DNA of 64,000 nucleotides from Escherichia coli (GTDB lineage: Bacteria > Pseudomonadota > Gammaproteobacteria > Enterobacterales > Enterobacteriaceae). Below are positions 7,215 to 64,000 of the stretch, piece after piece. The position numbers were made by a program, and so were the translations under genes. The notes beneath the pieces are model-generated. The model made no database searches. It saw nothing but the letters and a program-made list of their open reading frames with translations, and was not told where the DNA came from. Location: assembly GCF_041886205.1 (NCBI RefSeq), contig NZ_CP169029.1, one strand, 5' to 3'. Positions within the stretch are counted from its first letter, which is position 1; every line of letters starts with the position of its first letter.

Positions 7215-8300
7215 ATGTTCAAGCGTCGTTATGTAACATTGCTTCCCCTTTTTGTGTTGCTTGCCGCCTGTAGCAGCAAGCCAAAACCTACTGAGACTGA
7301 AACGACCACCGGAACGCCGTCTGGCGGCTTCCTGCTTGAGCCGCAGCACAATGTGATGCAGATGGGCGGCGATTTCGCTAATAACCCGAATGCCCAGCAG
7401 TTCATCGACAAAATGGTGAACAAACACGGTTTCGATCGTCAGCAGTTGCAGGAAATTCTCTCCCAGGCGAAGCGTCTGGATTCGGTACTGCGGCTGATGG
7501 ATAACCAGGCACCAACCACATCGGTGAAACCGCCATCAGGTCCGAACGGCGCATGGCTGCGTTATCGCAAAAAATTTATTACGCCGGACAACGTGCAGAA
7601 CGGTGTGGTTTTCTGGAATCAGTATGAAGATGCGTTGAATCGCGCGTGGCAGGTGTATGGCGTACCGCCGGAAATTATCGTCGGGATTATCGGCGTTGAA
7701 ACCCGCTGGGGGCGCGTGATGGGGAAAACTCGCATCCTCGATGCGCTGGCAACGCTGTCATTTAACTACCCACGCCGCGCGGAGTATTTCTCTGGCGAGC
7801 TGGAAACCTTCCTGCTGATGGCGCGCGACGAGCAGGACGATCCGCTCAATCTGAAAGGTTCCTTTGCCGGGGCGATGGGCTACGGACAGTTTATGCCGTC
7901 GTCTTACAAACAATATGCGGTAGATTTCAGCGGCGACGGGCATATCAACCTGTGGGATCCGGTTGATGCGATCGGTAGTGTGGCGAACTATTTCAAAGCG
8001 CACGGCTGGGTGAAAGGCGATCAGGTCGCGGTAATGGCAAACGGTCAGGCTCCAGGCTTGCCAAATGGCTTCAAAACTAAGTACAGCATTTCGCAGCTTG
8101 CCGCGGCAGGTTTAACGCCACAGCAGCCGCTGGGCAACCATCAACAAGCCAGCCTGCTGCGTCTGGATGTTGGCACCGGCTACCAGTACTGGTACGGTCT
8201 GCCGAACTTCTACACCATCACCCGTTACAACCACAGCACCCATTACGCAATGGCGGTCTGGCAGTTAGGACAAGCCGTGGCGCTGGCGCGCGTGCAGTAA
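7215..8300 (+). CDS. mltB: Membrane-bound lytic murein transglycosylase B (lipoprotein)
   Basis: 361 aa from MFKRRYVTLLPLFVLLAACSS (lipobox LAAC); ORF track start 7110 is an upstream extension. Confidence 0.9.
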   Translation: MFKRRYVTLLPLFVLLAACSSKPKPTETETTTGTPSGGFLLEPQHNVMQMGGDFANNPNAQQFIDKMVNKHGFDRQQLQEILSQAKRLDSVLRLMDNQAPTTSVKPPSGPNGAWLRYRKKFITPDNVQNGVVFWNQYEDALNRAWQVYGVPPEIIVGIIGVETRWGRVMGKTRILDALATLSFNYPRRAEYFSGELETFLLMARDEQDDPLNLKGSFAGAMGYGQFMPSSYKQYAVDFSGDGHINLWDPVDAIGSVANYFKAHGWVKGDQVAVMANGQAPGLPNGFKTKYSISQLAAAGLTPQQPLGNHQQASLLRLDVGTGYQYWYGLPNFYTITRYNHSTHYAMAVWQLGQAVALARVQ

Positions 8301-43155: not shown

Positions 43156-45285
43156 TCAATCAGTTGTGGAGAATCTTGAGGAACGAGAAACATGATCACT
43201 CCCTGAATGATTGATCTCTCTGATGTTGCTAGGTGAGAGGCAACCTCTCAACCTTCTTTTATTTATTATAACTAGTCCATCATGAGGAGAGTGATTAATG
43301 TTCACAGAATCCCCACGACTAAAGGCCAGAACGTTTTTAGTTGCAAATACACCCTCAAATGCGCTCCATATTCCTGCTTTATCTATATATAATGCGTGGA
43401 ATTCATTGTAGAGCTGCTGATAGGTAGAGCAACCTTTATTAAGCCACGCCTCACCGCCGACACGCGTCGACCCATCATCATTTTTAATTTCAGTCGTTGA
43501 TTTTAATACTTGGCCATCCCAGTAAACTAAAGGCCTGCTGAACGGGAGAGCGGCCATATATGCCATTGCTAATTGTTCATCTTGTTGATGGTTAAATAGA
43601 AAGTCATTGAAAAGATTGCCATTGTTAGGAAAATCGTGGTTAATGTTAATCAATATCCGTCTTTTTGATGGGATGCTTGAGATTGTTGAACCCGGTTTTG
43701 ATGCAAGGGTTTGGAGATCGCCACCAAATGAAAAAGCTTTTATCGTCTTCATGAGCAATGAAAAATCAATGGCGCTTAAATCATCTCTTTCATAAAGCAG
43801 CGATGACATTTGTTGTTCATCCAACTGACTAGTTACCAGATATTCCATGTAATTCATAACGGCTTTTTCATGATATTTTGGGTTAAATAAGTTAGTATTG
43901 TGTAATCGCTCATTATAATTTTTAAGCGGTGGGGTTATTGATCTTTCTATTTGTTCATGTTTTGAGTGTTTTGCTGCATCGTAACGTAAACCTCGTACGC
44001 CATATTTTCGCATTTCACGAACGTATTGATTTTGCAGCATAATAACCTGGTCACTTTTGGGGGTTGTTTTAGGCATTCCATTTAAACGCTTTTCTTTTAA
44101 TGCATAGAGGTTTTCCCATTCATCCTTAGAAATATTATCTTTACTTGCTTCGAAGTCTTTTGCAGTGAGATGTATATCTTCTGGATGGATTTGTTTACGT
44201 TCTTTTGTTACTGGATCTATAGTAAATGGAATCAAAACCTGACCTTGCCAATAGCCAGGGATACCACTTTCTATATCTTTACTGATCTTCGCTCGTATAT
44301 CAGTAGAGGGATAATCCAGGTCATTTTTACCACTACCCCCGATTCCCATAAAGTTAAAGGTATAATCAGGAATGATATCGATACCAAATTTTTTAGCATC
44401 TTTAACCAATGCGATAAAATCCTGCAAATCTCCCATTGGATTATGGATGGTACAAAGATCTTCGGGTTGATAAGCGTGAAACCAGTAACCTTTTTCTTCT
44501 TCGGGAGTTTCTGGTCCGTCGGCGCGGAAAGTTGTCACTGGAGGGATTTGTATATACCCATAATGGCAACGTGCAAACTCAGACATATTTTCCCTGATTT
44601 GCTGGTAGGTGGCATTAAAAGCATGAAGAATCGCTTCGCCAGGTTTTTTAGGGGTGATGATTTCACATTGTGATTTCTGAACAGCAGTAAGAGATTTACG
44701 CTCAAGTGTTTGCCGTAGATGTTCTGGATTGATTAATATTTTAAATGTTTCTTGCTGTCCGGAAGGTGACGTCACGTTAATATTATATACATCGGCTGCC
44801 AGCTCATAGTCAGGGATGTTAATAGCATATGCAACATATTTATCTTTTGGGGAGGGTTTTTCAGATATAATGTGGGTGAAATATTCAGCAGGACCATACT
44901 GGTGAACCCCCTTGTTATCTTCTCTTTCATTCATTGTATCTCTTTGATAAATCCATGTTTTTCCTTCTCCTATCCTGTCTGGCGCTGTAATGCTACGCTG
45001 TGCAGCTTTATTCAGTTCACGGTAAGTTGTATCTGGAAAAAGGGAAATTTTATAATCGTTTTTTAACAGATCATTAATGATTTTTTCTGCGTGAAAAGTT
45101 GATATAATTTCTCTGTCTTTTAAATCCTGAGGATAAACTCCACAAGCATTAATAATATTTGTTACACAGTTTAGATATTCTAATGTATTTAATTTGGAAT
45201 TTAGATCCCCGTCAGTAATGTTCCATGATAACAATGTGGGGGTGTCGATAGGTAAATTTCTTGGTCCTGGTTTTATAGAAAACAT
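43156..45285 (-). CDS. ygaQ: Alpha-amylase family (GH13-like) protein, probable intact form of ygaQ
   Basis: 709 aa AT-rich ORF; motif GVRGLRYDAAKH resembles GH13 conserved region II (GxRxDAxKH); adjacent to ileY as ygaQ is in E. coli; C-terminal ~40 codons may run into the anomalous block. Confidence 0.5.
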   Translation of the reverse strand: MFSIKPGPRNLPIDTPTLLSWNITDGDLNSKLNTLEYLNCVTNIINACGVYPQDLKDREIISTFHAEKIINDLLKNDYKISLFPDTTYRELNKAAQRSITAPDRIGEGKTWIYQRDTMNEREDNKGVHQYGPAEYFTHIISEKPSPKDKYVAYAINIPDYELAADVYNINVTSPSGQQETFKILINPEHLRQTLERKSLTAVQKSQCEIITPKKPGEAILHAFNATYQQIRENMSEFARCHYGYIQIPPVTTFRADGPETPEEEKGYWFHAYQPEDLCTIHNPMGDLQDFIALVKDAKKFGIDIIPDYTFNFMGIGGSGKNDLDYPSTDIRAKISKDIESGIPGYWQGQVLIPFTIDPVTKERKQIHPEDIHLTAKDFEASKDNISKDEWENLYALKEKRLNGMPKTTPKSDQVIMLQNQYVREMRKYGVRGLRYDAAKHSKHEQIERSITPPLKNYNERLHNTNLFNPKYHEKAVMNYMEYLVTSQLDEQQMSSLLYERDDLSAIDFSLLMKTIKAFSFGGDLQTLASKPGSTISSIPSKRRILININHDFPNNGNLFNDFLFNHQQDEQLAMAYMAALPFSRPLVYWDGQVLKSTTEIKNDDGSTRVGGEAWLNKGCSTYQQLYNEFHALYIDKAGIWSAFEGVFATKNVLAFSRGDSVNINHSPHDGLVIINKRRLRGCLSPSNIREINHSGSDHVSRSSRFSTTD

Positions 45286-45844
45286 AATAACGTTCCTCTA
45301 ATGGTAGAGTAATATGATGTATACGGAAACATAAAAATGTTTAATTGTTATGAAAGTAATTGCAAACAGATGTCCTATTTTTATCCAATATTTATATGGA
45401 AAAGGATAATGCTTAAATCTGTTTTTTTAATTATCGATGTGGTCTGGAGAGGCAACTGTCAAAAATCGCTCATACGAAACTAATTATTAGCAGAATAAGT
45501 TCTATAAAAGAATATATTGCTATATGAAGTTTATTTTTATGGAGTGAAAAGTAACAGATATCATAATGATGCGAAAACTCTTCAGTTAATGTAATAAACT
45601 TATATTATTAGATACAAAATCATTACAAAGTATCATTGAATCAATGATAACTATAGATAGTGTTAATTATTAACATTTGCTTGTTGACTGCGAGTATCGA
45701 CTTTGCGAATGGAGGCGATGTCGGGTTTTATGTCGCATGTATTGACGACCCAAGGTGAATGGGAACGCATAAAAATCTGTTATTTACATCATAAGATCAT
45801 CATGTTTATTGCGTGGTTTATAAGTATTGTTATTGCATACTTAA

Positions 45845-45920
45845 GGCCCTTTAGCTCAGTGGTTAGAGCAGGCGACTCATAATCGCTTGGTCGCTGGTTC
45901 AAGTCCAGCAGGGGCCACCA
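45845..45920 (+). tRNA. ileY: tRNA-Ile2 (anticodon CAU, lysidine-modified type)
   Basis: 76 nt GGCCCTTTAGCTCAGTGGTTAGAGCAGGCGACTCATAATCGCTTGGTCGCTGGTTCAAGTCCAGCAGGGGCCACCA. Confidence 0.85.
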
Positions 45921-46036
45921 AATAAAACAAGGACTTAGACAGGAAGCTGGCTAAGTCCTTTTTGTTTTGTTTCAATCTGGGTGACGTAATGGGTGACGTA
46001 ACTCAACTATAGGTGCCGTAGTCAGGGAGATTTAGC

Positions 46037-46831
46037 ATGAGCTTTAAGGATAAAGTTGAAGAGAAAAAAATGCGCCGTATGGCCCGTCCCCCTGAGTTAA
46101 CGGTAAAGGACTGGATTAGCCTTTATGATCTTCTTCGTTCAGCCAAAGCTCAAGACTCAGAAGCCATGTACGAAGACTTCGCCTCTGTGCTGTTAACTAC
46201 CCTGTCGGTTGAGCATCATCCGGAACTATACCGCCTGGACGGAAACAAACTAAACGCTGTTGCCGATGACCATTTTGCCTGGGACCTACTATCCGCCCCA
46301 ATGAAAGGGAAAATGTCCCCTGAAGAATTGGCGAAGCGCCCGAAGACCCTTTCCCAACTTCTTTGTATCTACGATGAAGATATCAGTAACGACGAGTCAC
46401 TTCGTACACATGGCTTCTTGCGTGACGCTATTGCCCCTATCCTCGATTTCGAGCTTCTGGATAGCATCGAAGATGAGCCTGACTACAAAGAAAAATATTT
46501 CGAGTTGCTAGCAGCGCAAAAGCACTCGACTCCCCCGCCACTAAGAGGGGAAAGTTATGCTATCAAACGAGAAGAGTTGCTGATCACAGCCCTTGCGGTT
46601 ATCTCTCAAAATCAAAGAGACGCTAATAAAAAGGTCGTCCCAACAGTTACTGAACTTCTGAATCAGATAGAAAAACATGCCTCTGCGTTCTGGCCTCACA
46701 GTAAACAACTTCCGATGTCTCGTGAGAATGCTTCTAAAGAGCTAGGCTTCGCCTTACATCTTTTAGAACAACCAAATCAGAATATTGAATTTCTTCGGGA
46801 AGCCAAAAAAGCAAAAAGAAAAAGTGCATAA
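46037..46831 (+). CDS. Hypothetical protein (264 aa), acidic, no recognisable motif
   Basis: ATG with AGGGAG RBS; first gene after the tRNA 3' end, where an integrase is normally found. Confidence 0.55.
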   Translation: MSFKDKVEEKKMRRMARPPELTVKDWISLYDLLRSAKAQDSEAMYEDFASVLLTTLSVEHHPELYRLDGNKLNAVADDHFAWDLLSAPMKGKMSPEELAKRPKTLSQLLCIYDEDISNDESLRTHGFLRDAIAPILDFELLDSIEDEPDYKEKYFELLAAQKHSTPPPLRGESYAIKREELLITALAVISQNQRDANKKVVPTVTELLNQIEKHASAFWPHSKQLPMSRENASKELGFALHLLEQPNQNIEFLREAKKAKRKSA

Positions 46832-46963
46832 AAAGAAATAGTTACAAAAGGTACCCAGTAATCTTCAGGAAGGTACACGAGAAATATACCGTTCAGTTTG
46901 ATTAACTCCGTTCAGTTTCAGCTTTCACCACCAGGAGTTATTCAATTGAAAAATAAACCAACC

Positions 46964-47167
46964 ATGTCTGATAAGGTTGTCGCCCTTCATCAGCCCCAAC
47001 GTCTGATTCGCATTGATACAATGCTTCAGCTCCTCGATTGCAGTCGCACCACCCTCTACCGCTGGGTTAAAGCTGGCATTTTCCCACAGCCGATAATGCA
47101 TGAGGGCCGAACCGTAGGATGGCCAGCCAATACGTATCAATGCTGGCTTGAGCAAAATAACAAGTAA
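46964..47167 (+). CDS. alpA: AlpA-family phage/island transcriptional regulator (MerR-like HTH)
   Basis: IRIDTMLQLLDCSRTTLYRWVKAGIFPQPIMHEGRTVGWPANTYQCWLEQ matches the AlpA pattern; ORF track start 46898 is a TTG-initiated extension, ATG at 46964 more likely. Confidence 0.7.
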   Translation: MSDKVVALHQPQRLIRIDTMLQLLDCSRTTLYRWVKAGIFPQPIMHEGRTVGWPANTYQCWLEQNNK

Positions 47168-47272
47168 TTCTGTTTGTTAAAGGGCTGAAATATTCAGCCC
47201 TTTCTTCATCTGACAATGAAACAAACTGGAACAAAAACGATTATTTTCACCTATTCTGCGACATGCTAAAAC

Positions 47273-48589
47273 ATGAGTAACTCTCTGATTAATCAAGTAA
47301 CAAAGCCCTCACCTGGTCAGGAACTCACCTCGGTATTTAATACTATTACGCCCGATAAGCCTGGCAACCTTGTTGAATATCAGCCAAAGGGAACGTTTGT
47401 TTTCAAAGAAGTGATGTGGTCTGTGCTGCCAGAGAAACGCAACCAGGACACGAAGATCATGAAAAGAATCTTCGGGGCAGTTGACAAGGTATCAGCGATG
47501 TCTCGCTTTCTTGCGGTCAGATATGATTTTCGGCTCCCGACCTACAGTGCGGATAATCGCATAATGGATGATTTCCATAATTTACTTTTCCGCCAGTTAA
47601 GTAAGAACTACCCAAAATCGTTTATCAGCTATCTTTGGGTAAGAGAGCAGGGCTCAGGGGAAGCACAGCATTATCACTATTTGTTGATGCTGGATGGCAA
47701 CTATATCCGTTATCCAAATAAGCTGAATACGATTGTCCGACATTGCTGGGAACAGGTTGCTGGTGGTTCGGTATGGTTCCCGGAAAACGGTTATTACTTT
47801 GTGAGCGAAAATGATCTCAAGACCTATACCGAATTGATGCTGAGAGTTAGCTATCTGGGTAAGCGCCGTACTAAAGAGTCAATTGATAAAGGTATCAAAC
47901 TTTTTGGCTCAGGCATGCGCAAACCGAAACCTGTCGCGCCTTCACGCCAAAAGTCTGCAATAACACCCTGCAAGCCAATCAACCAAAAAGCGGAGACGAA
48001 AACCAACGATCAGGATATGACGTTGAAATCCACCTACTCAGGAATGTTGGACAAATATTTTCTGGGCAAAGCCCGATTACCCGCCGTTCTGCGTAAACGT
48101 TCATCCTATGAACTTTATGACGAAAATAAATGGTGGTGTAATTCACCACGTTGGTCCGGCCATCGTCATAACTACGTGTTAGAGGCTCTGATTACTGGGA
48201 TCAGCCTTTCTGATTACGCACGCAAGTACAAGTTGAATCCAGTACGGGTATATGCAAACTGTCGCCGTGTTGGGGGGCAAAGCCTTAAAATTATTCACTG
48301 GGCATGGCATCGCTATTGCTTCCAGAAAAGCAAATCCACACAGGATGACTACATTAACAATCACCGGCTGAATCATAAAACAGCTAAAAAGCAGTTACGG
48401 CGTAAACCAATGAGCTCTCACTGGAGCCAGCACTTTGATCGATATTATCAAAAGTACTGGCCGAAAGGCTGGACTGTGGCCGACTACTGCCGTGAACACA
48501 ATCTGGTCGCCAGCACTGCCAGACGTTATATAGTCGATTTTCCATTTATAGGCCTGATAGACCCGTTCTTGTTGAAACCATGGTTATAG
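47273..48589 (+). CDS. HUH-motif protein, YagK/YfjJ-like (inovirus Gp2-type replication-initiator-like domain)
   Basis: 438 aa; HUH-like motif AQHYHYLLML; typical neighbour of alpA in CP4-type islands; C-terminal half basic, Trp/His-rich. Confidence 0.5.
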   Translation: MSNSLINQVTKPSPGQELTSVFNTITPDKPGNLVEYQPKGTFVFKEVMWSVLPEKRNQDTKIMKRIFGAVDKVSAMSRFLAVRYDFRLPTYSADNRIMDDFHNLLFRQLSKNYPKSFISYLWVREQGSGEAQHYHYLLMLDGNYIRYPNKLNTIVRHCWEQVAGGSVWFPENGYYFVSENDLKTYTELMLRVSYLGKRRTKESIDKGIKLFGSGMRKPKPVAPSRQKSAITPCKPINQKAETKTNDQDMTLKSTYSGMLDKYFLGKARLPAVLRKRSSYELYDENKWWCNSPRWSGHRHNYVLEALITGISLSDYARKYKLNPVRVYANCRRVGGQSLKIIHWAWHRYCFQKSKSTQDDYINNHRLNHKTAKKQLRRKPMSSHWSQHFDRYYQKYWPKGWTVADYCREHNLVASTARRYIVDFPFIGLIDPFLLKPWL

Positions 48590-49176
48590 AGATGAAAACA
48601 CCATAACAGTGTCACCTGGTATACTTACTGAGCGCGGCGTAACTTAAATATAAACACTTAGCCGCCATCAGTAAGCAGAGCCTTATCAACACTACCAGGG
48701 AATTATTGTGCAGCATGATAGCTGAGGTACCTCTCAATTCTTGACGGACATTAACGCACAGACAACGCTGATTACCTCCTGTAAGCCAATTTATATCTGC
48801 TTGCTGCCACATATCCGCTGGGACTAATCCCCTTTAAACACCTTTTACTTCAAAAAAATGTTTTCCTTCTGATTTATCCCATACGCGAAATAATGAAGAT
48901 TTTATTTTAATTACTAATACTTTCAATGAGATAAGATGCATACATTCTTACACTCATATGATCACTTTTATTTTTCTTTTAATATCAACACGTTATGAAT
49001 TGATCAGCACAAAAGTCACTGCAGGGGGTTAGCTGATTGAACGTTTCAGTTCGTTTCTAATGGCCACATATAGATTCACATCAAGAACTAGTGATCACTG
49101 TAGGGTAACGGTATGCCCAGATCAGCCTGCAGGGTATTCGCTGCGGATGACATGAAAAACAAAGACAGGGGATTGC

Positions 49177-49824
49177 TTACGGGTCAACAAACACACTGAT
49201 GGGGAGGTTAAACCGGCGCGCAAGTGCTCGCTTGTGATCCAGTGTTAATGTGCAATCCCCTTTCAGGATGCGACTCACCAGAGATTTATTACCAATCTCT
49301 TCTTCAAAATCGCTCTGAGTCAGTTTGTGCTGATCCATCAGTACGCGCAGTAAGGCAACACCCGTTGGGACCGCTGCAATACGGCTATTAAATTCAGCAA
49401 ACTCCGGCGCTTCATCTTCATACTGACCGATTTTCGCAACCAGAATATCCACCAGCGGATGGTCCGGCTCGTGTTCAATCAGATACTCGACCAGAGCCAG
49501 TGCATCTTCACTGTGGAAGCGTACGACTGATGTATAGGTAACATTTTGTTCAGTAATATATTTCATGGCTGCCAGTAAGTAGGAAGCTTTGAAAGTCACG
49601 TCCTGATAGTCCTTAGCTAACAAACTCCCATTCTCTTCAAACCGTTCAACAAATGCTGCAACTTCTTTTGGATCGATACGGCTGGTTTTATCTTTTCCGT
49701 TTCGAACAAACAGCTTTTGTTCTTCAGTATATAGCGTAAAAGGTACCTTCCTTGCCCCAGTAGACAGTTCAACTGGTTGGGAAAAAGACTCCAACATTAA
49801 ATGATAGAAATCTTTATAAGTCAT
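49177..49824 (-). CDS. Two-domain protein: unknown N-terminal domain + C-terminal XRE-family HTH
   Basis: 215 aa; C-terminus LTQSDFEEEIGNKSLVSRILKGDCTLTLDHKRALARRFNLPISVF fits HTH_XRE; lies 89 nt downstream of mcrC on the same strand. Confidence 0.6.
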   Translation of the reverse strand: MTYKDFYHLMLESFSQPVELSTGARKVPFTLYTEEQKLFVRNGKDKTSRIDPKEVAAFVERFEENGSLLAKDYQDVTFKASYLLAAMKYITEQNVTYTSVVRFHSEDALALVEYLIEHEPDHPLVDILVAKIGQYEDEAPEFAEFNSRIAAVPTGVALLRVLMDQHKLTQSDFEEEIGNKSLVSRILKGDCTLTLDHKRALARRFNLPISVFVDP

Positions 49825-49913
49825 GATTACTACTCCCTCATCATTTTAGCACTCAAGAAAATACATGATGTGGTTGATTATCCGGTTGATAATTATGAAT
49901 CGTCATCGTCTCA

Positions 49914-51215
49914 TTACGGGGAAAACAGGGGGAAGGACGATTGCCACTCACCTTCCACTAATGCCCCTGATTCAAGCTCGAAGGGCACACACCAGAGCGA
50001 TAAATGTTTATCAAAATGGAACACTGGCAACGGAGTATCAAAAAACTGATGACGTGGATATATCAGCATCATATTCCCCTTCCCTTGCAGATATTTTTGC
50101 CCATAAGCGAACATCTGATACAGATCAGCCTGGTTAATTTCATACTTTCTCAGGCTGTTATCAGCTCGGCTGTCTAACAGCTTCCATTTGGCATCCAGTA
50201 CCATTACCTGCTCACCTGTGATGAGAAAGTCAGGTTTAAGCATGAACCATTGTTGAGGAGCCCTTTCGCCAGCAGGTACATGATCTAACAAATAATGACG
50301 TTTTGCCTGCTCAATAAGCTGATAATCCCTCAGCAAAGATAAAGCCAAACTGCGCCCCACCCAGCATTCATATAATTTTTCCATCGGGAACAACAGCGAG
50401 ATCCCCTGATGCAACCCATGCTGAAAATCTGGATTCAGTTTTTCCAGAATAAGTTGGCACCATGGCTTGATGGCACGATAAGCATAGAGATATTTACCGT
50501 TGCTCCATTGCGCCAGAGGCTGCGTTGTACTGCCACAAATTGGCTCTATACCGTCCAGTTGGTGGCTCAACGTGTTCGCCTGTCGCCAGCTCTGCCCCTC
50601 TTTGGTCATTTTAAGCACCCAATTCAGGGCCGTACGTAACAGACGGTTTTCAACTCGCTGAGGTGAAAACTCCGCATAACGCACATGAAAGCGAGCATCT
50701 CTACCAGGAGGCTGTCTCATTTGTGCCGTGATGTTCAACTGACCACGGATAAAAGCGCTGTGCTCATCCTCAACAAGGTGGTAGTCGAACCGCAACCCTT
50801 TGTGTACCAGTTCGGTAAGATGCCGCAAGAACTCGCTGAAAATCCACTCATGCATCGGCTGGTTGCTCCGCTGCAATGCAGCCTGATTAACTTCTCGGGG
50901 TGTAATCCCCAATGAAGCGCTGAGCATTCGACGTAAAAGCTGACGCAGGGGGATTATCTCAGTTGGCGCTTCAAATGTGGTTTTGGGCAGAATTTCAATT
51001 GACTCGCCATTCGGGGATTGTAGATAACCGACATAGCTTCCCAAACGCAAAAACCGCTTCCCTTCTCGGCTGAGAATTTGAGAGGTACCACTCCACTTTT
51101 GTTGCAATTGCTCAAGCCAGGAAAAGGTTGCCTCAGAGACAATTCCCAAATCCATACTGGCTGTTTGAGAACTATCACAAGTCAGCAGAGCATATTCCCG
51201 GACCTGGATCATCAT
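49914..51215 (-). CDS. mcrC: McrC-family nuclease subunit of a type IV (modification-dependent) restriction system
   Basis: 433 aa; PD-(D/E)xK-like VLDAKWK motif; 4-nt overlap with upstream McrB-like gene. Confidence 0.75.
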   Translation of the reverse strand: MMIQVREYALLTCDSSQTASMDLGIVSEATFSWLEQLQQKWSGTSQILSREGKRFLRLGSYVGYLQSPNGESIEILPKTTFEAPTEIIPLRQLLRRMLSASLGITPREVNQAALQRSNQPMHEWIFSEFLRHLTELVHKGLRFDYHLVEDEHSAFIRGQLNITAQMRQPPGRDARFHVRYAEFSPQRVENRLLRTALNWVLKMTKEGQSWRQANTLSHQLDGIEPICGSTTQPLAQWSNGKYLYAYRAIKPWCQLILEKLNPDFQHGLHQGISLLFPMEKLYECWVGRSLALSLLRDYQLIEQAKRHYLLDHVPAGERAPQQWFMLKPDFLITGEQVMVLDAKWKLLDSRADNSLRKYEINQADLYQMFAYGQKYLQGKGNMMLIYPRHQFFDTPLPVFHFDKHLSLWCVPFELESGALVEGEWQSSFPLFSP

Positions 51216-53194
51216 GTGACAATACCCTGATAAGCTTCTACCGACGCGAAAGCACGTTCATTGATGCGAAAACGCCTGTCAGACAAGCTATCCGCAATAT
51301 CTTTCGGGAATAGTTCAGAGAATGACGGTAATTGTGCTGACTGTTGCAACAGGATAAAACGGTTTTCTTTCGCTTTTACCGAATCATTAAGCACCCAACC
51401 AATGCGCTCATAATCATCAAAGAAATACTCTCTCAGTAATGGAATGATTTTGTTCTGGAAGATGCTGGCCAGACAGGCTTCGCGGTCGGCATTATTTTCT
51501 AATTTTTTTAGTGGCATAAAGTAAGCATGGCCAATCATATGTTCACTATCCAGCAGCGCTTCGATCCGCTGATTAATACGCGTTAACAACGTTTCGACAT
51601 CAACACCGAACGCAGTGACCCCAGCTAACAGCTCCGGTCGTGCGGGCATTTCGGTAAAGCTAAAGCGTCGTCTTAGCGCCAAGTCCATTTGGATGAGTGA
51701 TTTATCCGCAGTATTCATCGTCCCAATGACATAAACATTTTGCGGTACTGAGAATGCTTGCTTTGAATAAGGGAGCATCAGCGACCGCTCATCATCGGCC
51801 CCTTGACGTTTGTCCGGCTCAAGAAGAGTAATAAGCTCACCAAAGATACGTGCTATATTACCGCGGTTGATTTCATCTATTATCAGTACATGTGGTAGAT
51901 CCTGACTATCGGCATTCTCAACAGGAGCCAGCAACTGAGTTAATTTTTCACGATCAATCGTCGTATCCTGCAACTCATATAGGGTCATCTGAGATAGTGA
52001 CTTGATGAAAATTTGCTCTTTAGGAAGGCTTGGGGTGTATGTTCTTAACCATTTAACTGAACGCATTTGATGGTAATACTCACGTTCATCATTGGGTAAA
52101 TAACTATACTCACCTGTAATCTCAGCTATTGCACGGAACTTATGATTTCCATCAGAGACGACGACTAAATCGCCATTCTTAATAATATTTTTAAAGGTAT
52201 TCACGGCAACAGCCATATAATTACTGGTGCCTTCCAATGACTGTTTTTCTGATGCAATCCGAGCTTTGACTGACTCATAGGTAGAGCAGTTACTAAAATC
52301 GATATCTTCTCCCCAACCTAGCAGGACATAATTGTTTGCCAGGCAGTCCTCATACACATCCTCTTCTCCGCCCATGGTATTACCCAGAGACATCTTCCAG
52401 ATCCGCCGACCTTTGAGTGAGATAGATTGTGTTGCACTCCCCTGAACTTTAACCCTGGCATTCAGGCACAGCTGTTTAAAAATACCATCCACAACTTCGT
52501 AGCGAAGCGCGCCCGATTTTTCATCAGTAGTTGCGCGAATCCCTTCGATAAAATCTTCATAGGAGAAGCTCTGATGGAAGGTGGTAAACATAATGCGCTG
52601 CTTTTCTACCAACGCCTTATAGCGTTCATTTACCAACTCCCGTAAGTCATTGCCATGATGTTCGAGCGTAGCCTGTTGGTACCACGTATTATCGGCAATT
52701 TTGACCGCCATTTCGGTGGTACTGTAGGTTTTACCCGTGCCGGGTGGTCCAAAGAGAATTTGGTTTAAGGGATACATTAACGATTGTTCCTTATTTTCGT
52801 TGTCTCTTTTTAGTCTGGGTTGGGTAGTTATAGATGGTTTACCACCCAGCAAAGCCACCAGCGTCTGCAACGCTTCAACGGATTCAACATCAGCCGCGAA
52901 ACCATATTGGGATGTACCGTTATCTTTCGGATAACGGCGGTAGCTGGTGCTTTTTACTTTTTCCCAAAGGCAGTGGATACCCGAAATGCGATCAATTTCC
53001 GCTTTTACGGCAAGGGTTTCAGGTGCAAGAACCAATGGACTCTTTTTAACCACGCCGTCCCGGCTGCGTTTGACATACAGATACTTTCCATTCCCGAGCG
53101 CATGTTCGGATGCATAGCTTGGCTCGAATTTTCCCGCCTCAAGCCGGTAACCCAATTCATTCAACGCCTGGTATATCTCGAAAGAATTCAGCAT
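51212..53194 (-). CDS. mcrB: McrB-family AAA+ GTPase with atypical N-terminal domain and ~190-aa insertion between Walker A and Walker B
   Basis: 660 aa; Walker A GPPGTGKT, McrB-type Walker B LIIDEINRGNIARIFGEL, FHQSFSYEDFIEG; inserted segment RRIWKMSLG...GDLVVVSDGNHKFRAIAEITGEY...RSVKWL. Confidence 0.75.
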   Translation of the reverse strand: MLNSFEIYQALNELGYRLEAGKFEPSYASEHALGNGKYLYVKRSRDGVVKKSPLVLAPETLAVKAEIDRISGIHCLWEKVKSTSYRRYPKDNGTSQYGFAADVESVEALQTLVALLGGKPSITTQPRLKRDNENKEQSLMYPLNQILFGPPGTGKTYSTTEMAVKIADNTWYQQATLEHHGNDLRELVNERYKALVEKQRIMFTTFHQSFSYEDFIEGIRATTDEKSGALRYEVVDGIFKQLCLNARVKVQGSATQSISLKGRRIWKMSLGNTMGGEEDVYEDCLANNYVLLGWGEDIDFSNCSTYESVKARIASEKQSLEGTSNYMAVAVNTFKNIIKNGDLVVVSDGNHKFRAIAEITGEYSYLPNDEREYYHQMRSVKWLRTYTPSLPKEQIFIKSLSQMTLYELQDTTIDREKLTQLLAPVENADSQDLPHVLIIDEINRGNIARIFGELITLLEPDKRQGADDERSLMLPYSKQAFSVPQNVYVIGTMNTADKSLIQMDLALRRRFSFTEMPARPELLAGVTAFGVDVETLLTRINQRIEALLDSEHMIGHAYFMPLKKLENNADREACLASIFQNKIIPLLREYFFDDYERIGWVLNDSVKAKENRFILLQQSAQLPSFSELFPKDIADSLSDRRFRINERAFASVEAYQGIVT

Positions 53195-53223
53195 TTCCTA
53201 CACCACTCCTTGATGAAAAAGCG

Positions 53224-56200
53224 TTAAGCCCCTTTCAACATATCAAACACCACGCGGGCAAAGCCCTTCGCCAGTTCAGGATTAGAGAGGTATTGCACCA
53301 TCATCTCCTGCTGGGCGTCGTTGCTGTCCATCACGGCATCATCAATGGCTTTCGGGAAATCGCCCAGCATCGCCTGCTCACGCGTATTGTTCGCAATCTG
53401 GGTCATCACCGCCTGGTTTTCTGACAGCTTGTCGCGCACCGCGAAGGCATAATTGATCATGTCTTTATCGGTCAGATTATCGGTGACGAACAGCTCGTTC
53501 AGGCGCGCCAGGATATTCGACAGAAACTCTTCTTTCTTGTCTTTCGGCTTCGCCGTACCGACATCATTCCCCGGTGTGATTTTGTATTCTGCCGCATCTT
53601 CCTGCAGCTTCAGATGCTGTTCGTGGAGTTTCGACAGGCGATAATGGCTCATCTCCACGTTGCTTAAATCAATCTCATCTTCTTCGATACGCTGTTCATG
53701 CAGTAACGGGCGCAGGTGGCGGGCAAATAGGCTCAGTTTTTCCAGGTTCTTGTCGTCGTAATCGACGATTTGCGACATAAACTCGTAAAAGCGGACAAAG
53801 CTGCCGAGGTCTTTCTTGAAGATATCCAGCTTACTTTTTTCTTTCTCGCACTCTTTGAAGCTGTTTTCCGCATTGGTGATCAGCACAACATCGCCGGTCT
53901 TCTTAGTACGTTCGAAGATCGCTTTGGCCTTTACATACTCGTCAATCGCCGAGGTGTAACGCTGTTTCCAGCGCTGCACCGCTGGTTTGCAGATATTACT
54001 AATGGCCGCGTTGGATTTGTTTTTGCTGAAGAACGCTTCGCAGAACTGCTCCACTTCGTTCCACAGGAAAATACCGCTGGTACGCAGCTTTTCAAAGAGC
54101 TCAAAGACCTGTTGCGGGTCGCTGACATCCGTCAGTTCTGCTGTCTGGTAGTACGGCTGGAAAGCCCCCAAAATCTCGTCGGGCTCGTTGTAGAAATCGA
54201 GCACAAAGGTGCCTGACTGCGCCTTCCCCGGATAGGTACGGTTCAGGCGTGACAGCGTCTGTACACACTCCACGCCGCCAAGCTTTTTATCCACATACAT
54301 GGCACACAGCTTGGGTTGGTCAAAACCGGTCTGGAATTTGTTGGCCACCAGCATCACCTGGTAGTCGTCGGTATCAAACGCTTTGCGCATATCCCGGCCT
54401 TTCAGGCCTGGGTTCATATTGATTTCGGTGAACTTCTGGTTAAGCAATGCAAGGCTATTGTGGTCATCTTCATGGAACTCAACTTCACCGGAGAACGCCA
54501 CCATTGCGCTGATCTTGTCGTATTTTTGCTCGGCGATGTATTTATCGAATGCCAGCTTATAGCGCACCGCTGCTTTACGCGAACTGGTCACCACCATCGC
54601 TTTCGCCTGACCAGCCAGTAAGTGCATCACATGCTTGCGGAAGTGCTCAACAATCACCTTCACTTTCTGCGACACGTTATGATCGTGCAGCGATACCCAC
54701 TGGTTGAGTTTGATCTTGGCTTTCTTGCTGTCTACTTCCCGGTCAGGATCGTCCAGCTTTTGCAGCAGCTTGTACGCCACCTTGTAGTTGGTGTAGTTCT
54801 TCAGCACATCAAGTATGAAGCCTTCTTCGATGGCCTGACGCATTGAGTAAACGTGAAACGCTTCCGGTTTGTTCGTTTTCGACGCCGGTTCCTGCGGATT
54901 AGGACGACGGCCAAACAGCTCCAGCGTTTTGGCTTTCGGCGTGGCGGTAAAGGCGTAATAGTTGAGATTGTTGCTGCCTTTACGTGCGGCGACGGTGGCA
55001 TCCAGAATATCTTCTGAAGACATCTCCACATCGTCATCCGCTTCTTCGGTCATAAGCACTTCTTTCAGCTGACGCGCCGTAGAACCACTCTGCGAGGAGT
55101 GCGCTTCATCGGCAATCACCGCGTATTTGCGCTGCTTGAGGCTGACGCTGTTTTCAATCGCCTTCAGGACAAACGGGAACGTCTGGATAGTGACGATAAT
55201 GATCGGCTGCGAGTTTTCCAGCGCGCTGGCCAGCTTCTCCGATTTAGAACCGTCGCCTTCTTTGTTATTGATCCGCCCGACCACGCCATCCTGATGCTCA
55301 AACTGATAGATGGTGTCCTGCAGCTGATCGTCAAGCACGGTGCGGTCCGTCACCACAATCACCGAATGGAACTGCTTCTCGCCATTTTCATCATACAGGC
55401 GGGAAAGCTGATGGGCCGTCCAGGCGATAGAGTTAGATTTGCCCGACCCGGCACTGTGCTGAATCAGGTATTTATTGCCGGTGCCTTCCACTGTGGCGGC
55501 GGTGATCAGTTTATTCACCACATCCCACTGGTGATAGCGTGGGAAAATCAGGCTCTCACTTTTGTACTTCAGGCCAATGGCATCTTCTTTTTCTACGATT
55601 TGCAGATGCACGAAGCTCGCGAGAATTTTCAGCAGATTGTCCGGCAGTAGCACCTCATTCCACAGGTAGCTGGTGGCGTAGTCGTTGGCATCTTCCGGGA
55701 TATCGTTCCCCGCACCGCCGTCATGGGTGCCTTTGTTAAACGGCAGGAAGAAGGTTTTATCGCCCTCGAGTTTGGTCGCCATAAACACTTCGTACTGGCT
55801 GACGGCAAAGTGCACCAGCGCGCCGCGTTTAAAGGTCAGCAGCGGCTCGGGTTTATTAGTGCCTGGGTCCTTTGGCAAACGCGTTTTCTTATATTGCGTA
55901 ATGGCGTTTTGCACCGTCTGCTTAAATTCAGACTTCAGTTCCAGGGTCGCTATCGGCAGGCCATTAACGAACAATACCAGGTCGATACGCCATTTCTTCG
56001 CTTTTATACCGGTATCTTCAAATGCGGCGTTCGATGCATGCGGGCTGTAAACCAGCTCCGGCACGATGCGGCAGATATTCTGTTTATAACGAGCCAGTGT
56101 TTCCGGATTGAGGTTATGTTCCGGCTTAAACTGGCACAGAGAAAAACGCGCGTTATGGCTTTTGATACCATGTCGCAGCACGCCTAAAGTGCCATAGGTG

Positions 56201-60358: not shown

Positions 60359-63300
60359 ATGCCAATTATTAATAAAAAGTATCAAGAGCTTCAGTTAACA
60401 GATGAGTACATTACCGATCCACTGCTCATGGCCCTAGCCTGGAAGAAAAGCCATCACTACATACGTACCACAAATTGGTATGCTGACAACTTTGAACTAG
60501 ACCTGTCGGCTTTGGACCTAATGCAGCACTGTAAAGATTGGGTCAAGAGAATGCAGGACAAAAAAGAATTTAAATTTTCAGAGCTACAACTTGTTCCTGT
60601 ACCAAAAGCCTGTAAATGGGAGTTTAAGACTGTCGAAAATAAGGTTCTATGGCAACCTTGTGATGAAAAAGAACTTACCCTACGCCCCCTTGCCCATATA
60701 CCCATAGCTGAACAAACCATCATGACATTAGTCATGATGTGCCTAGCCAATACAATAGAAACCAAGCAAGGAAACCCAGACACCAGCTATGACATCGTCC
60801 ACCAGAAAGGTATCGTCAATTACGGAAATAGACTTTATTGTCAGTATATTGACGATAAAGCAGAGCACAGCTTCGGTGCAACAGTGACATATAGTAAATA
60901 CTTCACTGATTATCGGAAATTTTTAAATAGGCCTTATCATTTTGCGTCAAAAGCGCAAGGTGAAATTTCGCCGGACGAAGCCGTTTACATCATAGAACTA
61001 GATCTTGCGAAGTTTTTCGATTTAGTAAACAGGAAGACTCTAATTCAAAAGATAAAAAACCATATCAGTGAGTCAATAAACAATAAAGAAAACCCACTCG
61101 CCAATCATTTATTTAAATGTTTTGCAAACTGGGACTGGACTGCATCTAGCATAAAAAATTATGACATATGCAAGTCAGACGAAGTAACAGAAATACCAAA
61201 AGGCATCCCTCAAGGATTGGTTGCAGCAGGGTTTCTATCAAATATTTACTTACTTGAATTAGATCAATTCTTGCATAATAAAATTAACACAGACATAACT
61301 GATGACATTAAATTTGTTGATTACTGTCGATATGTCGATGACATGCGATTTGTGGTTAAGGTTAAAAAATCAAAAAATAATAATACCGCATTCATAAATG
61401 ATGTAATAACCAATCTTCTTAAAAATGAGATAGATAATCTTGGACTGATAATTAATCCTAAAAAAACAAAAGTAGAAATTTTTAGAGGCAAATCCGCAGG
61501 CATCTCGCGTAGCTTGGAAAACATCCAGACCAGATTAAGCGGCCCAATATCAATGGATAGCGCCAACGAACAACTTGGGCATCTTGAGTCATTATTAAGT
61601 CTGACAAAAACCGATTTTGAACCACCGAAAAATGGTAAATCAAATAGATTAGCTGAGATTGAAAAAGACCGTTTCGATGTCAGGGAGGACACTCTTAAGC
61701 GCTTTTCTGCCAATAAAATCAGTAAGATACTAAAAGAGTTAAGACATTTCATCTCGCAGGATATAGATACTGATGGGGAGGTTATTGCCGGGGAATGGGA
61801 TTATCTGCAAGAACGTTTGGCACGGCGTTTTATTGTCTGTTGGAGCCATGACCCGTCACTGGCACTGCTACTCAAGAAAGGGCTGGAACTTTTCCCTGAT
61901 CCTAAGCTATTAGACCCTATACTTGAACAGCTTTGCTCACTCATTGAAAGCGATAATGAAAAACAAAGTGCAGTAGCTACTTATTGCCTTGCTGAAATAT
62001 TTCGACATTCAGCAATGACTATTCATAAAAAAGACACCTATGCATTCCCTGCACAAGCCAATGTGGATGGGTACTTTGAAAAAATACAACATTGCGCCGC
62101 GACATTCATTAATAAGCGCAGCGCCTCTGACAACGAAACTTGGAACCTGTTAATTAATCAGGCTAGTTTTCTGTTGCTTGTGCGTTTAGATAATACATTA
62201 GAAAAAAATGGCACTGATGCCAGGCATGATCTTATCTTAAAACTGGCATCAGGCTTTAGAACAATTACACTTCCCACTAAAATGGATAGCAAGACTATAG
62301 CCTCATGTATTTTGTTGGCTAGTCAATTAGTTAAAGATAACAAACCATTTATTCGCTCCTGCGCTTCTTTGTGCGAAAGAATTTATGACAAAGAACACGT
62401 CATAAAATTGAAGAAAATAGTTAGCATAATATCACATCAAAACTTATCATTGTTTAAATCCTTAGTTTATCATTCACGACCTTTACAACAGAAGTGGCTA
62501 AACTCAGACTCCGTGAAAATAATAATTAATGAATGCCATATAGATATACAACCTTTGGCGACTTCTTTAGGCATGATAAAAAGTAGTCACTCATTACTTA
62601 GAATCATATCAAGACCTGATAACCCATTTGCCAATGAGATAATGGCATTAAAACTGATGCAAGCCCTTTTATTGGACAGGATTGTTTGCCTGGATAATAA
62701 AAAAGATTATCAAATAAGTGTAGCAAACACCAAAGTGACGTTTCATAACTACTCCAACCCTCCAACATCGAATGTCTTCGATGCAGGAATGGATATGGAT
62801 GCAAAATTATTCAAATCATCGGGATGGGTCGATTCTATTTTCACGGATGATGCAGACACTCAAATATTGTATAGAGTTGCCATGTGCATCCGTTCAGTAC
62901 TACTCGGCAAACAAGACTGGACAGATTTTGGTCAAGCAATTTCCCCCAAACAGGGTTATCGGGGTATTAAAACTAGTAGAGACAAACGTCAATTGGGGAT
63001 GATGACAACACCTGAGTCCATTGCCGGTGAGAACTCTCAGGTTTCTGGTTGGCTTACCACACTCTTATCCAAGTTGCTTGCCTGGCCGGGAATTTCAGTG
63101 GGTGATAATGGATATCAATGGCCAGCAATTTTTACAGTAGATGCTGTCAGAAAACTAGTTGATGCTCGGCTGAGTAAACTTAAGCAGGATTACTGCAAAC
63201 TATCAGGAACTCCGGGACTTACAGAAAAAATACAGTTCAACTGGTCTGACTCGAAAAAAGCCCTAACAGTTGCTATGGTCCAGTCAAAACTGCCTGCAAC

Positions 63301-64000
63301 GAAAGATTTTGTCAGCCATGGACTTCTTTTAAACTCCGCAAAGTATAGAGTGATTCATCGCAGACATGTTGCTGAAGTGGCTGATTTAGTTGTAAAACAC
63401 ACGCTTGCACAAAAAACAACTCAACGAACTCATGGTGAAAAAATAGAGAACATTGATTTAATAGTATGGCCTGAGCTCGCTGTACATAGTGACGATTTGG
63501 ATGTACTCATCGCCTTATCTAGAAAAACGAATGCAATCATATACTCGGGCCTGACATTTATTGAGCAACCTGGAATCAAAGGACCAAATAATTGTGCCGT
63601 TTGGATTGTCCCACCTAAAAGCAATAGCAGCCAGAAAGAAATGATAAGACTTCAAGGCAAGCATAATATGATGGAAGATGAGAAAGGCCGGGTTGAACCC
63701 TGGAGACCATACCAATTGATGCTTGAACTTGTTCACCCCCAATTTACTGATAAAAAAGGATTTGTTCTCACAGGCTCCATTTGTTATGACGCAACCGACA
63801 TCGCGCTAAGTGCAGATCTCAGGGATAAATCAAATGCTTATCTTGTAGCAGCATTAAACAGGGATGTTAATACATTCGATTCCATGGTTGAAGCACTGCA
63901 TTATCATATGTACCAGCATGTTGTGCTCGTTAACTCAGGGGAATTCGGAGGATCTTACGCTAAAGCACCTTACAAGGAGCCGTTTAATCGTTTGATTGCT
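60359..64000 (+). CDS. Defence-associated reverse transcriptase fused to a C-terminal nitrilase (CN-hydrolase) domain, DRT1/UG1-like; 3' end beyond window
   Basis: At least 1214 codons with no stop; RT motifs LDLAKFFD, GIPQGLVAAGFLSNIY, YVDD at 61331-61342, GLIINPKKT; long helical middle; nitrilase-like WPE (Glu 63473-63475), GKH, ICYD (Cys 63782-63784); not in ORF track because open-ended. Confidence 0.65.
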   Translation, partial: MPIINKKYQELQLTDEYITDPLLMALAWKKSHHYIRTTNWYADNFELDLSALDLMQHCKDWVKRMQDKKEFKFSELQLVPVPKACKWEFKTVENKVLWQPCDEKELTLRPLAHIPIAEQTIMTLVMMCLANTIETKQGNPDTSYDIVHQKGIVNYGNRLYCQYIDDKAEHSFGATVTYSKYFTDYRKFLNRPYHFASKAQGEISPDEAVYIIELDLAKFFDLVNRKTLIQKIKNHISESINNKENPLANHLFKCFANWDWTASSIKNYDICKSDEVTEIPKGIPQGLVAAGFLSNIYLLELDQFLHNKINTDITDDIKFVDYCRYVDDMRFVVKVKKSKNNNTAFINDVITNLLKNEIDNLGLIINPKKTKVEIFRGKSAGISRSLENIQTRLSGPISMDSANEQLGHLESLLSLTKTDFEPPKNGKSNRLAEIEKDRFDVREDTLKRFSANKISKILKELRHFISQDIDTDGEVIAGEWDYLQERLARRFIVCWSHDPSLALLLKKGLELFPDPKLLDPILEQLCSLIESDNEKQSAVATYCLAEIFRHSAMTIHKKDTYAFPAQANVDGYFEKIQHCAATFINKRSASDNETWNLLINQASFLLLVRLDNTLEKNGTDARHDLILKLASGFRTITLPTKMDSKTIASCILLASQLVKDNKPFIRSCASLCERIYDKEHVIKLKKIVSIISHQNLSLFKSLVYHSRPLQQKWLNSDSVKIIINECHIDIQPLATSLGMIKSSHSLLRIISRPDNPFANEIMALKLMQALLLDRIVCLDNKKDYQISVANTKVTFHNYSNPPTSNVFDAGMDMDAKLFKSSGWVDSIFTDDADTQILYRVAMCIRSVLLGKQDWTDFGQAISPKQGYRGIKTSRDKRQLGMMTTPESIAGENSQVSGWLTTLLSKLLAWPGISVGDNGYQWPAIFTVDAVRKLVDARLSKLKQDYCKLSGTPGLTEKIQFNWSDSKKALTVAMVQSKLPATKDFVSHGLLLNSAKYRVIHRRHVAEVADLVVKHTLAQKTTQRTHGEKIENIDLIVWPELAVHSDDLDVLIALSRKTNAIIYSGLTFIEQPGIKGPNNCAVWIVPPKSNSSQKEMIRLQGKHNMMEDEKGRVEPWRPYQLMLELVHPQFTDKKGFVLTGSICYDATDIALSADLRDKSNAYLVAALNRDVNTFDSMVEALHYHMYQHVVLVNSGEFGGSYAKAPYKEPFNRLIA

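Follow-up and report, generated by a model that had tools for sequence, protein, structure and literature searches.

A TGATCA-box array behind the HUH Rep-like gene of an Escherichia coli tRNA-Ile island as a candidate iteron-like origin at the border between island core and cargo

Results

In a 64,000-nucleotide stretch of Escherichia coli DNA (contig NZ_CP169029.1, hereafter the window), the 587 bp that separate a Rep-like gene from a HigA-like gene (positions 48590-49176) carry a compact array of GATC-centred TGATCA boxes. Box clusters of this type recur directly behind the Rep-like gene throughout the gene family, even where the surrounding DNA has lost all alignable similarity. We propose, with a probability of roughly 40%, that the array is a cis-acting, possibly Dam-sensitive, iteron-like origin for the HUH protein that the island encodes. 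Most of the gap itself is the non-coding end of a conserved island core composed of tRNA-Ile(CAU), a 264-aa gene, alpA and the yagK-like Rep gene, with cargo DNA being exchanged immediately beyond it.

A long non-coding gap between convergent genes

The first-pass annotation of this region had described a non-coding gap flanked by convergent genes, and both the sequence and the ORF lists bear this out. The plus-strand Rep-like gene has its stop codon at 48589 and the minus-strand HTH gene ends at 49177, and the longest ORF that separates them (48612-48812, minus strand) encodes only 66 aa. This is long for non-coding DNA between convergent genes in an enterobacterium. The length is no accident of this copy since all relatives have a comparable stretch, specifically 330-1380 bp without a convincing gene, after their Rep-like gene. 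The 66-aa ORF and two others of 35 and 24 aa were considered as small proteins and rejected, as their starts or frames are lost or their conservation, at only about 54%, falls short of the roughly 70% seen for the DNA; the 24-aa ORF also has no Shine-Dalgarno sequence.

The identities that had been given to the two flanking genes hold as well. On the left is the Rep-like gene (47273-48589, plus strand). Its 438-aa product consists of a YagK/YfjJ HUH domain at the N-terminus that a disordered linker joins to an all-helical domain at the C-terminus (residues ~285-438). Searches of Pfam and NCBIfam assigned only YagK_YfjJ_C (PF11726, E 1.8e-15) and, below threshold, REP_ORF2-G2P (PF23343). The HUH motif H133-Y134-H135 and the YxxK motif Y194-L-G-K197 are invariant across 20 aligned homologues, and the protein has the metal-binding motif and the catalytic Tyr that the cognate protein of a rolling-circle origin would have. 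A full-length AF2 model of the protein is poor (pLDDT 62.8), a Foldseek search gave generic ferredoxin-like matches only, and a PDB sequence search returned nothing. The right flank is a HigA-like HTH gene of 215 aa (49177-49824, minus strand) with a sub-threshold Pfam match to HTH_3. Residues 107-214 of its product match antitoxin HigA (PDB 5ycl/5ifg, E 6e-29), and its N-terminal 105 aa have no match. It is the outermost gene of a McrBC plus type I restriction-modification cargo, with McrC (PF10117), McrB and the type I HsdR/S/M genes following rightward on the minus strand as a defence module. RefSeq labels the HigA-like gene a truncated pseudogene; a 216-aa counterpart occupies the same position beside mcrC in a Buttiauxella locus (L029). 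Its product additionally shows a weak PADLOC match to PD-Lambda-2_B, and no HigB-like toxin gene is evident.

Location and distribution of the island

Homology with all relatives begins at tRNA-Ile(CAU) (45845-45917, plus strand; Rfam tRNA, 71.6 bits), which forms the left boundary of the island core. From this tRNA the order is the 264-aa gene, an AlpA-type gene, the Rep-like gene, the gap and the cargo. When the gap was compared by BLAST in near and distant modes with 5,426 complete E. coli genomes, a single carrier was recovered, E. coli GDSC2227PM, in which the island sits at ileY adjoining glaH-lhgO-gabDTP. BLAST of the gap against plasmids and a phage collection gave no matches, and a pattern search of viral contigs did not find it. 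A look-up based on the exact flanking proteins yielded 20 loci (L002-L021) that contain an island at least 99.9% identical to that of the window. Some of these near-identical copies are located at ileY (next to glaH/ygaQ) while others are next to rpoD-mug, a neighbourhood that, judging from enterobacterial gene order, we take to be the ileX site. The presence of such a near-identical island at two tRNA-Ile(CAU) genes indicates very recent spread between them, and at this level of identity the 20 loci are uninformative as to which parts are constrained.

Several features of the surrounding DNA deserve mention. A P2/186-like prophage (CI, Int, Fil, Dhr, GpA) occupies the same tRNA-Ile to the left of the island in L006/L013 and in L022, and because this prophage duplicates the 3' part of the tRNA, homology to the window begins at 45875 in these loci. 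Upstream of the tRNA, a 709-aa ORF (43156-45285, minus strand) that is intact in the window is split by IS1A in GDSC2227PM, and the gene called at this position in other carriers encodes 750 aa and weakly matches Alpha-amylase_C. At the other end, the match between the window and GDSC2227PM ends at 60369, where GDSC2227PM continues with IS1 followed by ParB, recombinase and integrase genes. The ~3.6 kb of the window to the right of hsdM (60370-64000) contain no ORF of at least 150 aa and may be decayed or unusual island DNA.

A TGATCA-box array follows the Rep-like gene across the family

The gap contains three TGATCA boxes within 139 nt, or four boxes within 166 nt when one AGATCA variant is included. 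Box 1 (aTGATCAcTTTT, 48959-48964) and box 3 (gTGATCAcTGTA, 49092-49097) are invariant in all seven alignable relatives; box 2 (49001-49006) is not kept in all of them, and box 4 is the AGATCA variant (49119-49124). The window as a whole has 23 TGATCA sites relative to 21 expected, and the only triple lies in the gap. When the analysis is extended to 14 loci, in which TGATCA has a density of 0.56 per kb with the clusters included, 13 have 2-5 TGATCA within 100-290 nt, located 0-500 nt after the Rep-like stop codon. In 13 of the 14 the array behind the Rep-like gene is also the only cluster of at least three TGATCA in the locus (L024 has two sites). Overall, a cluster of boxes, consisting of TGATCA or of the variants TGATCC/GGATCA, directly follows the Rep-like gene in each of 11 lineages whose proteins range from 28 to 97% identity, against a background of about 0.5 sites per kb.

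The array is kept even in lineages whose gap DNA cannot be aligned to that of the window. Specifically, relatives at 49-63% protein identity show no similarity in gap DNA by BLAST or with an nhmmer profile of the gap, the profile being blank for those at 58-63%, and the sharing of 9-mers with distant relatives does not rise above that of shuffled sequences except for words that contain TGATCA. The spacing between boxes is nevertheless similar, being 42/91/27 nt in the window, 43/96/22 nt in L047 and 46/94/23 nt in L049, the latter two both being non-alignable loci. In the most distant lineages the boxes themselves change, with four TGATCC/GGATCA sites around the Rep-like stop codon of L051, five ATGATCCC/GGGATCAT sites within 290 nt in L057 and three in L056. 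An array that stays in position and remains centred on GATC, with flanks that drift along with the protein, looks, at the level of sequence, like a specific protein-binding array, and the change of the boxes to TGATCC/GGATCA or ATGATCCC in distant lineages has the look of a protein and a binding site that co-evolve. No description of a TGATCA array after Rep-like genes was found in the literature that we searched.

Two other repeats were seen in these loci. L051 has a second cluster of four TGATCC in 120 nt (669-790) that is inside a GGDEF/EAL gene far from the Rep-like gene, and the Atlantibacter locus L028 has a tandem repeat of about four copies of GCCGGTAT (7535-7570) directly after its TGATCA boxes that is absent in other relatives.

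Composition and conservation of the gap

The left part of the gap is dominated by secondary structure. A long imperfect hairpin (48615-48699, inverted repeat I3) begins 26 nt past the Rep-like stop codon, with predicted folding energies of -31.1 kcal/mol (z -4.1) on the plus strand and -38.3 kcal/mol (z -3.4) on the minus strand; none of 200 shuffled sequences was as stable. This hairpin has no U-tract on the plus strand and is clade-specific, being shorter in L027 and L024 and missing from distant relatives. It is probably a terminator or a 3' stabiliser of the core operon. On the minus strand, folding of 48585-48700 additionally predicts a small hairpin (48598-48612), trailed by the U-run UUUUCAUCU (UUUUCAU), that is weakly terminator-like for leftward transcripts; a simple terminator scan found none in the gap. 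Further to the right is a dispensable segment (48761-48805) that corresponds to 42 gap columns in the Silvania locus L027 and the metagenome locus L024.

The right half of the gap has a different composition. The GC content is 0.21-0.30 over 48800-49000, adjoining the boxes, and an equivalent trough follows the gene in all relatives. Within this stretch an AT-rich block (48846-48940, GC 0.21-0.30) is a candidate DNA-unwinding or bending region. A match to the IHF consensus, TATCAACACGTTA (WATCAANNNNTTR), is located on the plus strand between boxes 1 and 2 (48983-48995) and is preceded by a T-rich tract. The window has eight matches to this consensus relative to 3.0 expected, making the match weak on its own; the site core A.AT.AA....TTA is invariant in seven relatives, and similar sites adjoin the boxes in L025 and L051. 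Box 2 is contained within a repeat unit, R1 (48990-49035), and box 4 within a shortened copy, R2 (49108-49143), which is the last part of the conserved core; both units, detected as direct repeats D1 and D2, have a GATCAGC box. The best-conserved block of the gap is AGCTGATTGAACGTTTCAGTTCGTTTCTAATGGCC (49031-49065), which is 83-91% identical to L024/L027 and whose GTTTCA-N5-TTTCT core recurs between the boxes of the Buttiauxella relatives L025 and L029. A search of the gap for the DnaA box TTWTNCACA found none.

As a neutral yardstick we used the four-fold degenerate sites of the Rep-like gene, which are 0.83 identical to those of the Silvania locus L027 and 0.78 to those of L024. Only the AT-rich block (0.75-0.80) and the 49031-49065 block (0.83-0.91) reach this benchmark. 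Most of the gap evolves no slower than four-fold sites, and thus its alignment-based conservation alone is modest. These rates invite the reading that the gap is ordinary intergenic DNA, namely a terminator hairpin plus either AT-rich spacer under drift or what is left of a decayed gene, in which the TGATCA sites have no function. This would agree with most of the gap diverging as fast as or faster than four-fold sites, with relatives tolerating indels of 10-45 nt, with the terminator-like hairpin being the strongest single feature and with the common occurrence of AT-rich intergenic DNA in acquired islands. It is, however, at odds with the recurrence of the array in 11 lineages, non-alignable ones included, at many times background, and with boxes 1 and 3 and the 49031-49065 block being invariant or nearly so; for a decayed gene, moreover, no reading frame is kept as protein. 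We consider a functionless spacer quite improbable.

The first-pass annotation had also entertained a small RNA in the gap, a suggestion for which the analysis gave no support. Such an RNA, which could be antisense or resemble a type I antitoxin, would run from a minus-strand promoter-like site, TTGAAA-16-TAAAAT (48899-48926), to the 48598-48612 hairpin and its U-run, with the very stable long hairpin downstream on the same strand as a further point in its favour. However, a promoter scan found two sites where 2.7 are expected by chance, and although the -35 element of this site is invariant, the final T of the -10 element is lost in six of seven relatives, so the site is probably not functional. 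The 42-nt deletion and other indels also fall inside the would-be transcript. An Rfam scan of 44000-54000 at E <= 1 detected the tRNA only, with nothing in 48590-49176, and consensus folds computed with RNAalifold over about 290 nt are weak on both strands (-14.8 and -13.7 kcal/mol, with covariation terms of -1.8 and -0.6). The chance that the gap encodes a small RNA is therefore slim.

The border between core and cargo lies at the right edge of the gap

The gap had further been suspected to be the junction of a mobile-element arm and a defence module. A comparison of related islands that carry different cargo locates such a junction inside the gap, but only at its far right edge, at about 49130-49145. 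Homology extends from the tRNA to ~49111-49140 and then gives way to five different cargos, and the segment is thus conserved across related islands. In Salmonella (L022/L023), where the Rep-like protein is 97% identical, the DNA is 97.4% identical from the tRNA to 49119 and unrelated beyond, with an IS fragment, an AraC regulator and a fimbrial usher operon in place of McrBC. Citrobacter sp. R56 has core DNA that is 96.2% identical and matches to 49111, followed by a cargo that includes predicted lipoproteins (judged from ORF translations). The core of Silvania hatchlandensis is 87.3% identical to 49125 and precedes a 1016-aa ATPase-like ORF, and the metagenome relatives (L024, L035, L044) have core DNA that is 72-82% identical. 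Taken by locus, the BLAST end points are 49119 (L022/L023), 49111 (L026), 49125 (L027), 49130 (L024), 49117 (L035) and 49125 (L044), and in multiple alignments weak similarity can be traced to about 49136-49143. The break point is fuzzy over ~30 bp and is some 30-45 bp from the HTH stop codon. Since homology reaches ~49111-49140, about 540-555 bp (92-95%) of the gap are core and about 30-45 bp are cargo. The cargo portion, 49146-49176, is a cargo-specific tail behind the minus-strand HigA-like gene that has no terminator-like structure (fold z +0.99) and is only 18-33% identical to the other cargos. Cargo is swapped just beyond the last box of the array. The orientation of the cargo also varies, being on the minus strand in the window and on the plus strand in the Salmonella, BREX and Citrobacter relatives. 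The locus L005 was set aside as junction evidence as its homology stops only at 49828, with a DDE transposase gene next, and is uninformative for the junction in the gap.

Other members of the core family (L049-L052, L045/L046 and L029) carry BREX (BrxA/B/C), an SNF2-type helicase or a diverged HigA-like plus McrBC set.

This layout can be read in terms of an ISCR/IS91-like oriIS-type terminus of an HUH-driven rolling-circle gene-capture unit, for which unrelated cargo would always start just beyond the array. The five cargos do start within about 30 bp of each other, and ISCR1 shows the same order of HUH gene, conserved non-coding ori region of a few hundred bp and variable DNA (PMC6218425). 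However, the Rep-like protein is a member of PF11726, which is no known IS91/ISCR transposase family, the break point is not exact, no ter-like end was identified, and the corresponding island of E. coli GDSC2227PM has integrase genes at its distal end. The whole island rather appears to be the mobile unit, since core and cargo are found as one block, 99.9% identical, at both the ileY and the ileX site. We regard a capture terminus as rather unlikely.

The boundary also bears on whether the gap contains a recombination site, as the first-pass annotation had proposed, or a packaging site. In that case the array would be an att-like or pac/cos-like site of an integrase, a recombinase or a helper phage. 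Repeated boxes next to an IHF-type site do resemble att arms and the lambda-type cosB, the cargo boundary adjoins the array, and P2/186-like prophages use the same tRNA in some hosts. The results nonetheless run against an att site, with no repeat of at least 11 nt of the tRNA-Ile 3' region at 49100-49176 or elsewhere in the island, no further copy of the element when the window and related loci were scanned with the nhmmer gap profile, and a break point that is spread over ~30 bp. A degenerate copy of the tRNA 3' end at the junction was rejected on the basis of the same repeat search. A packaging site would also have to be reconciled with the lack of any match in the phage collection or in viral contigs, and we judge this class of sites to be very unlikely.

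An operator or insulator that is bound by AlpA, by the 264-aa protein, by the C-terminal domain of the Rep-like protein or by Dam/SeqA, and that has no origin function, is an unlikely explanation but has several points in its favour. Such an element would control transcription across the convergent junction or time excision. The boxes are palindromic 6-mers of the kind to which dimeric HTH proteins typically bind, and they contain GATC. Most relatives that have the array also have alpA and the 264-aa gene, and transcripts from the cargo should run into the array because no terminator follows the HigA-like gene. On the other hand, there is no gene or conserved promoter beside the array to be regulated, the cargo differs in orientation between relatives, and CP4-57 of K-12 carries alpA without an array.

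A candidate protein for binding the boxes

The K-12 proteins YfjJ and YagK are only 208 aa long, have no C-terminal domain and are not accompanied by a TGATCA cluster, a comparison that is limited to two loci. In L056 (1267-1980) and L057 (3001-3720) the C-terminal domain is instead present as a separate ORF of 237-239 aa that overlaps the end of the HUH gene and that matches residues 240/289-438 of the Rep-like protein with E about 1e-38. This layout is a domain fission or fusion, and as the C-terminal half is encoded separately in these loci it behaves as an independent module. The absence of both domain and array from the short YfjJ/YagK proteins, together with the separable domain in L056/L057, weakly suggests that the C-terminal tandem-HTH-like domain is a candidate binder of the boxes. 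Other candidate binders are AlpA, the 264-aa protein and host factors, SeqA among them.

Discussion

We favour an iteron-like origin as the function of the array, and picture it as follows. The right half of the gap (about 48846-49143) would be a cis-acting protein-binding region made up of the AT-rich stretch, an IHF-type bend site and the boxes. After excision of the island, the Rep-like protein would bind the array by means of its C-terminal domain. Opening of the DNA would be assisted by IHF and by the AT-rich block, and the HUH domain would nick nearby, leading to replication of the circle or to the start of rolling-circle transfer or capture. Since each box holds a Dam site (GATC), binding to the boxes may depend on Dam methylation. 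The origin function and the roles of the protein, of Dam and of IHF in this scheme are ones that we infer, and they go beyond the observed conservation of the region, the family-wide link between array and Rep-like gene, the position of the junction and the intact HUH and Tyr motifs.

As for the nick itself, no nick-site motif was identified in the gap. One sequence, TTTTAATATCAAC, bears a resemblance to the nick sites of f1, geminiviruses or pC194, but was rejected as a candidate given that its region is AT-rich and fails to fold and that the inverted repeat around it is not kept in relatives. When treated as single-stranded DNA the box array likewise forms no stable hairpin and folds like shuffled sequences (z 0.0-0.5).

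A broader proposition, which we put forward tentatively as doubtful but worth stating, is that long YagK/YfjJ (Gp2-like) proteins together with a downstream TGATC(A/C) array make up a previously undescribed Dam-gated replicon or capture module. Its detachable tandem-HTH domain would guide the HUH nuclease to GATC-centred iterons at the outermost edge of the core, and the module would serve as the docking point at which enterobacterial tRNA-Ile islands swap defence systems, such as McrBC with type I R-M, BREX or SNF2 helicases, and other cargo.

Anti-phage systems appear to be carried by the YagK-type core quite generally, and genes of the YagK/YfjJ family occur in many tRNA- or tmRNA-linked islands that have such systems. 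The array provides a concrete candidate target site for this uncharacterised HUH family as well as a means of recognising in the sequence exactly where the cargo starts, an aid in delimiting defence islands. If the array is indeed an origin or a capture end, then this would explain the persistence and the cargo exchange of cores that are distal to an integrase, and would constitute a second, unrelated case of initiator sites built around a Dam site.

Comparison with known systems

Iteron-type origins next to an initiator gene in mobile islands and plasmids are represented, for example, by the rep-ori modules of SaPI/PICI elements. The array resembles such origins in that a rep-like gene is followed at once by short repeated boxes that flank or adjoin AT-rich DNA, and the presence of an AlpA-type regulator gives the island a further likeness to SaPI/PICI-type modules. 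There are also important differences. The protein is an HUH 'inovirus Gp2-like' protein with a tandem-HTH-like tail and not a primase-helicase or a RepA-type initiator, and the gap with its candidate origin has no DnaA boxes.

The closest parallel for the boxes themselves is found in the RctB iterons of Vibrio cholerae chromosome II, in which TGATCA comprises the only fully conserved bases and methylation is needed for RctB binding (PMC3937223). The island array has the same repeated, invariant TGATCA core with its Dam site. In contrast to RctB, the protein involved is unrelated, there are only three to six boxes, and the array belongs to an integrative island and not to a chromosome origin.

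A different parallel is offered by ISCR1, in which a 232-bp oriIS region behind the HUH gene marks the limit of the element, with variable genes beyond it (PMC6218425). The island shares with ISCR1/IS91 elements an HUH gene, a conserved non-coding region of a few hundred bp and variable cargo right after it, but differs in HUH family, in being anchored at a tRNA, in having alpA and a distal integrase, and in its fuzzy boundary.

Finally, the gene content is closest to that of islands inserted at tRNA or tmRNA genes. CP4-57 and CP4-6 of K-12 (intA-yfjH-alpA-yfjI-yfjJ, then abpBA) also combine alpA with a YagK/YfjJ core, a convergent or variable defence cargo and insertion at a tRNA or tmRNA gene. 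Unlike in the window, however, the gap behind the K-12 YfjJ/YagK genes is short, has an ordinary terminator-like hairpin and lacks a TGATCA array. In the tmRNA islands of Pseudomonas (intY), a Gp2-like gene and alpA are among the likely core genes according to the authors, and most of these islands carry defence systems (PMC12595487). The island described here departs from both CP4-57/CP4-6 and the Pseudomonas islands in that its core abuts the tRNA and not the integrase.
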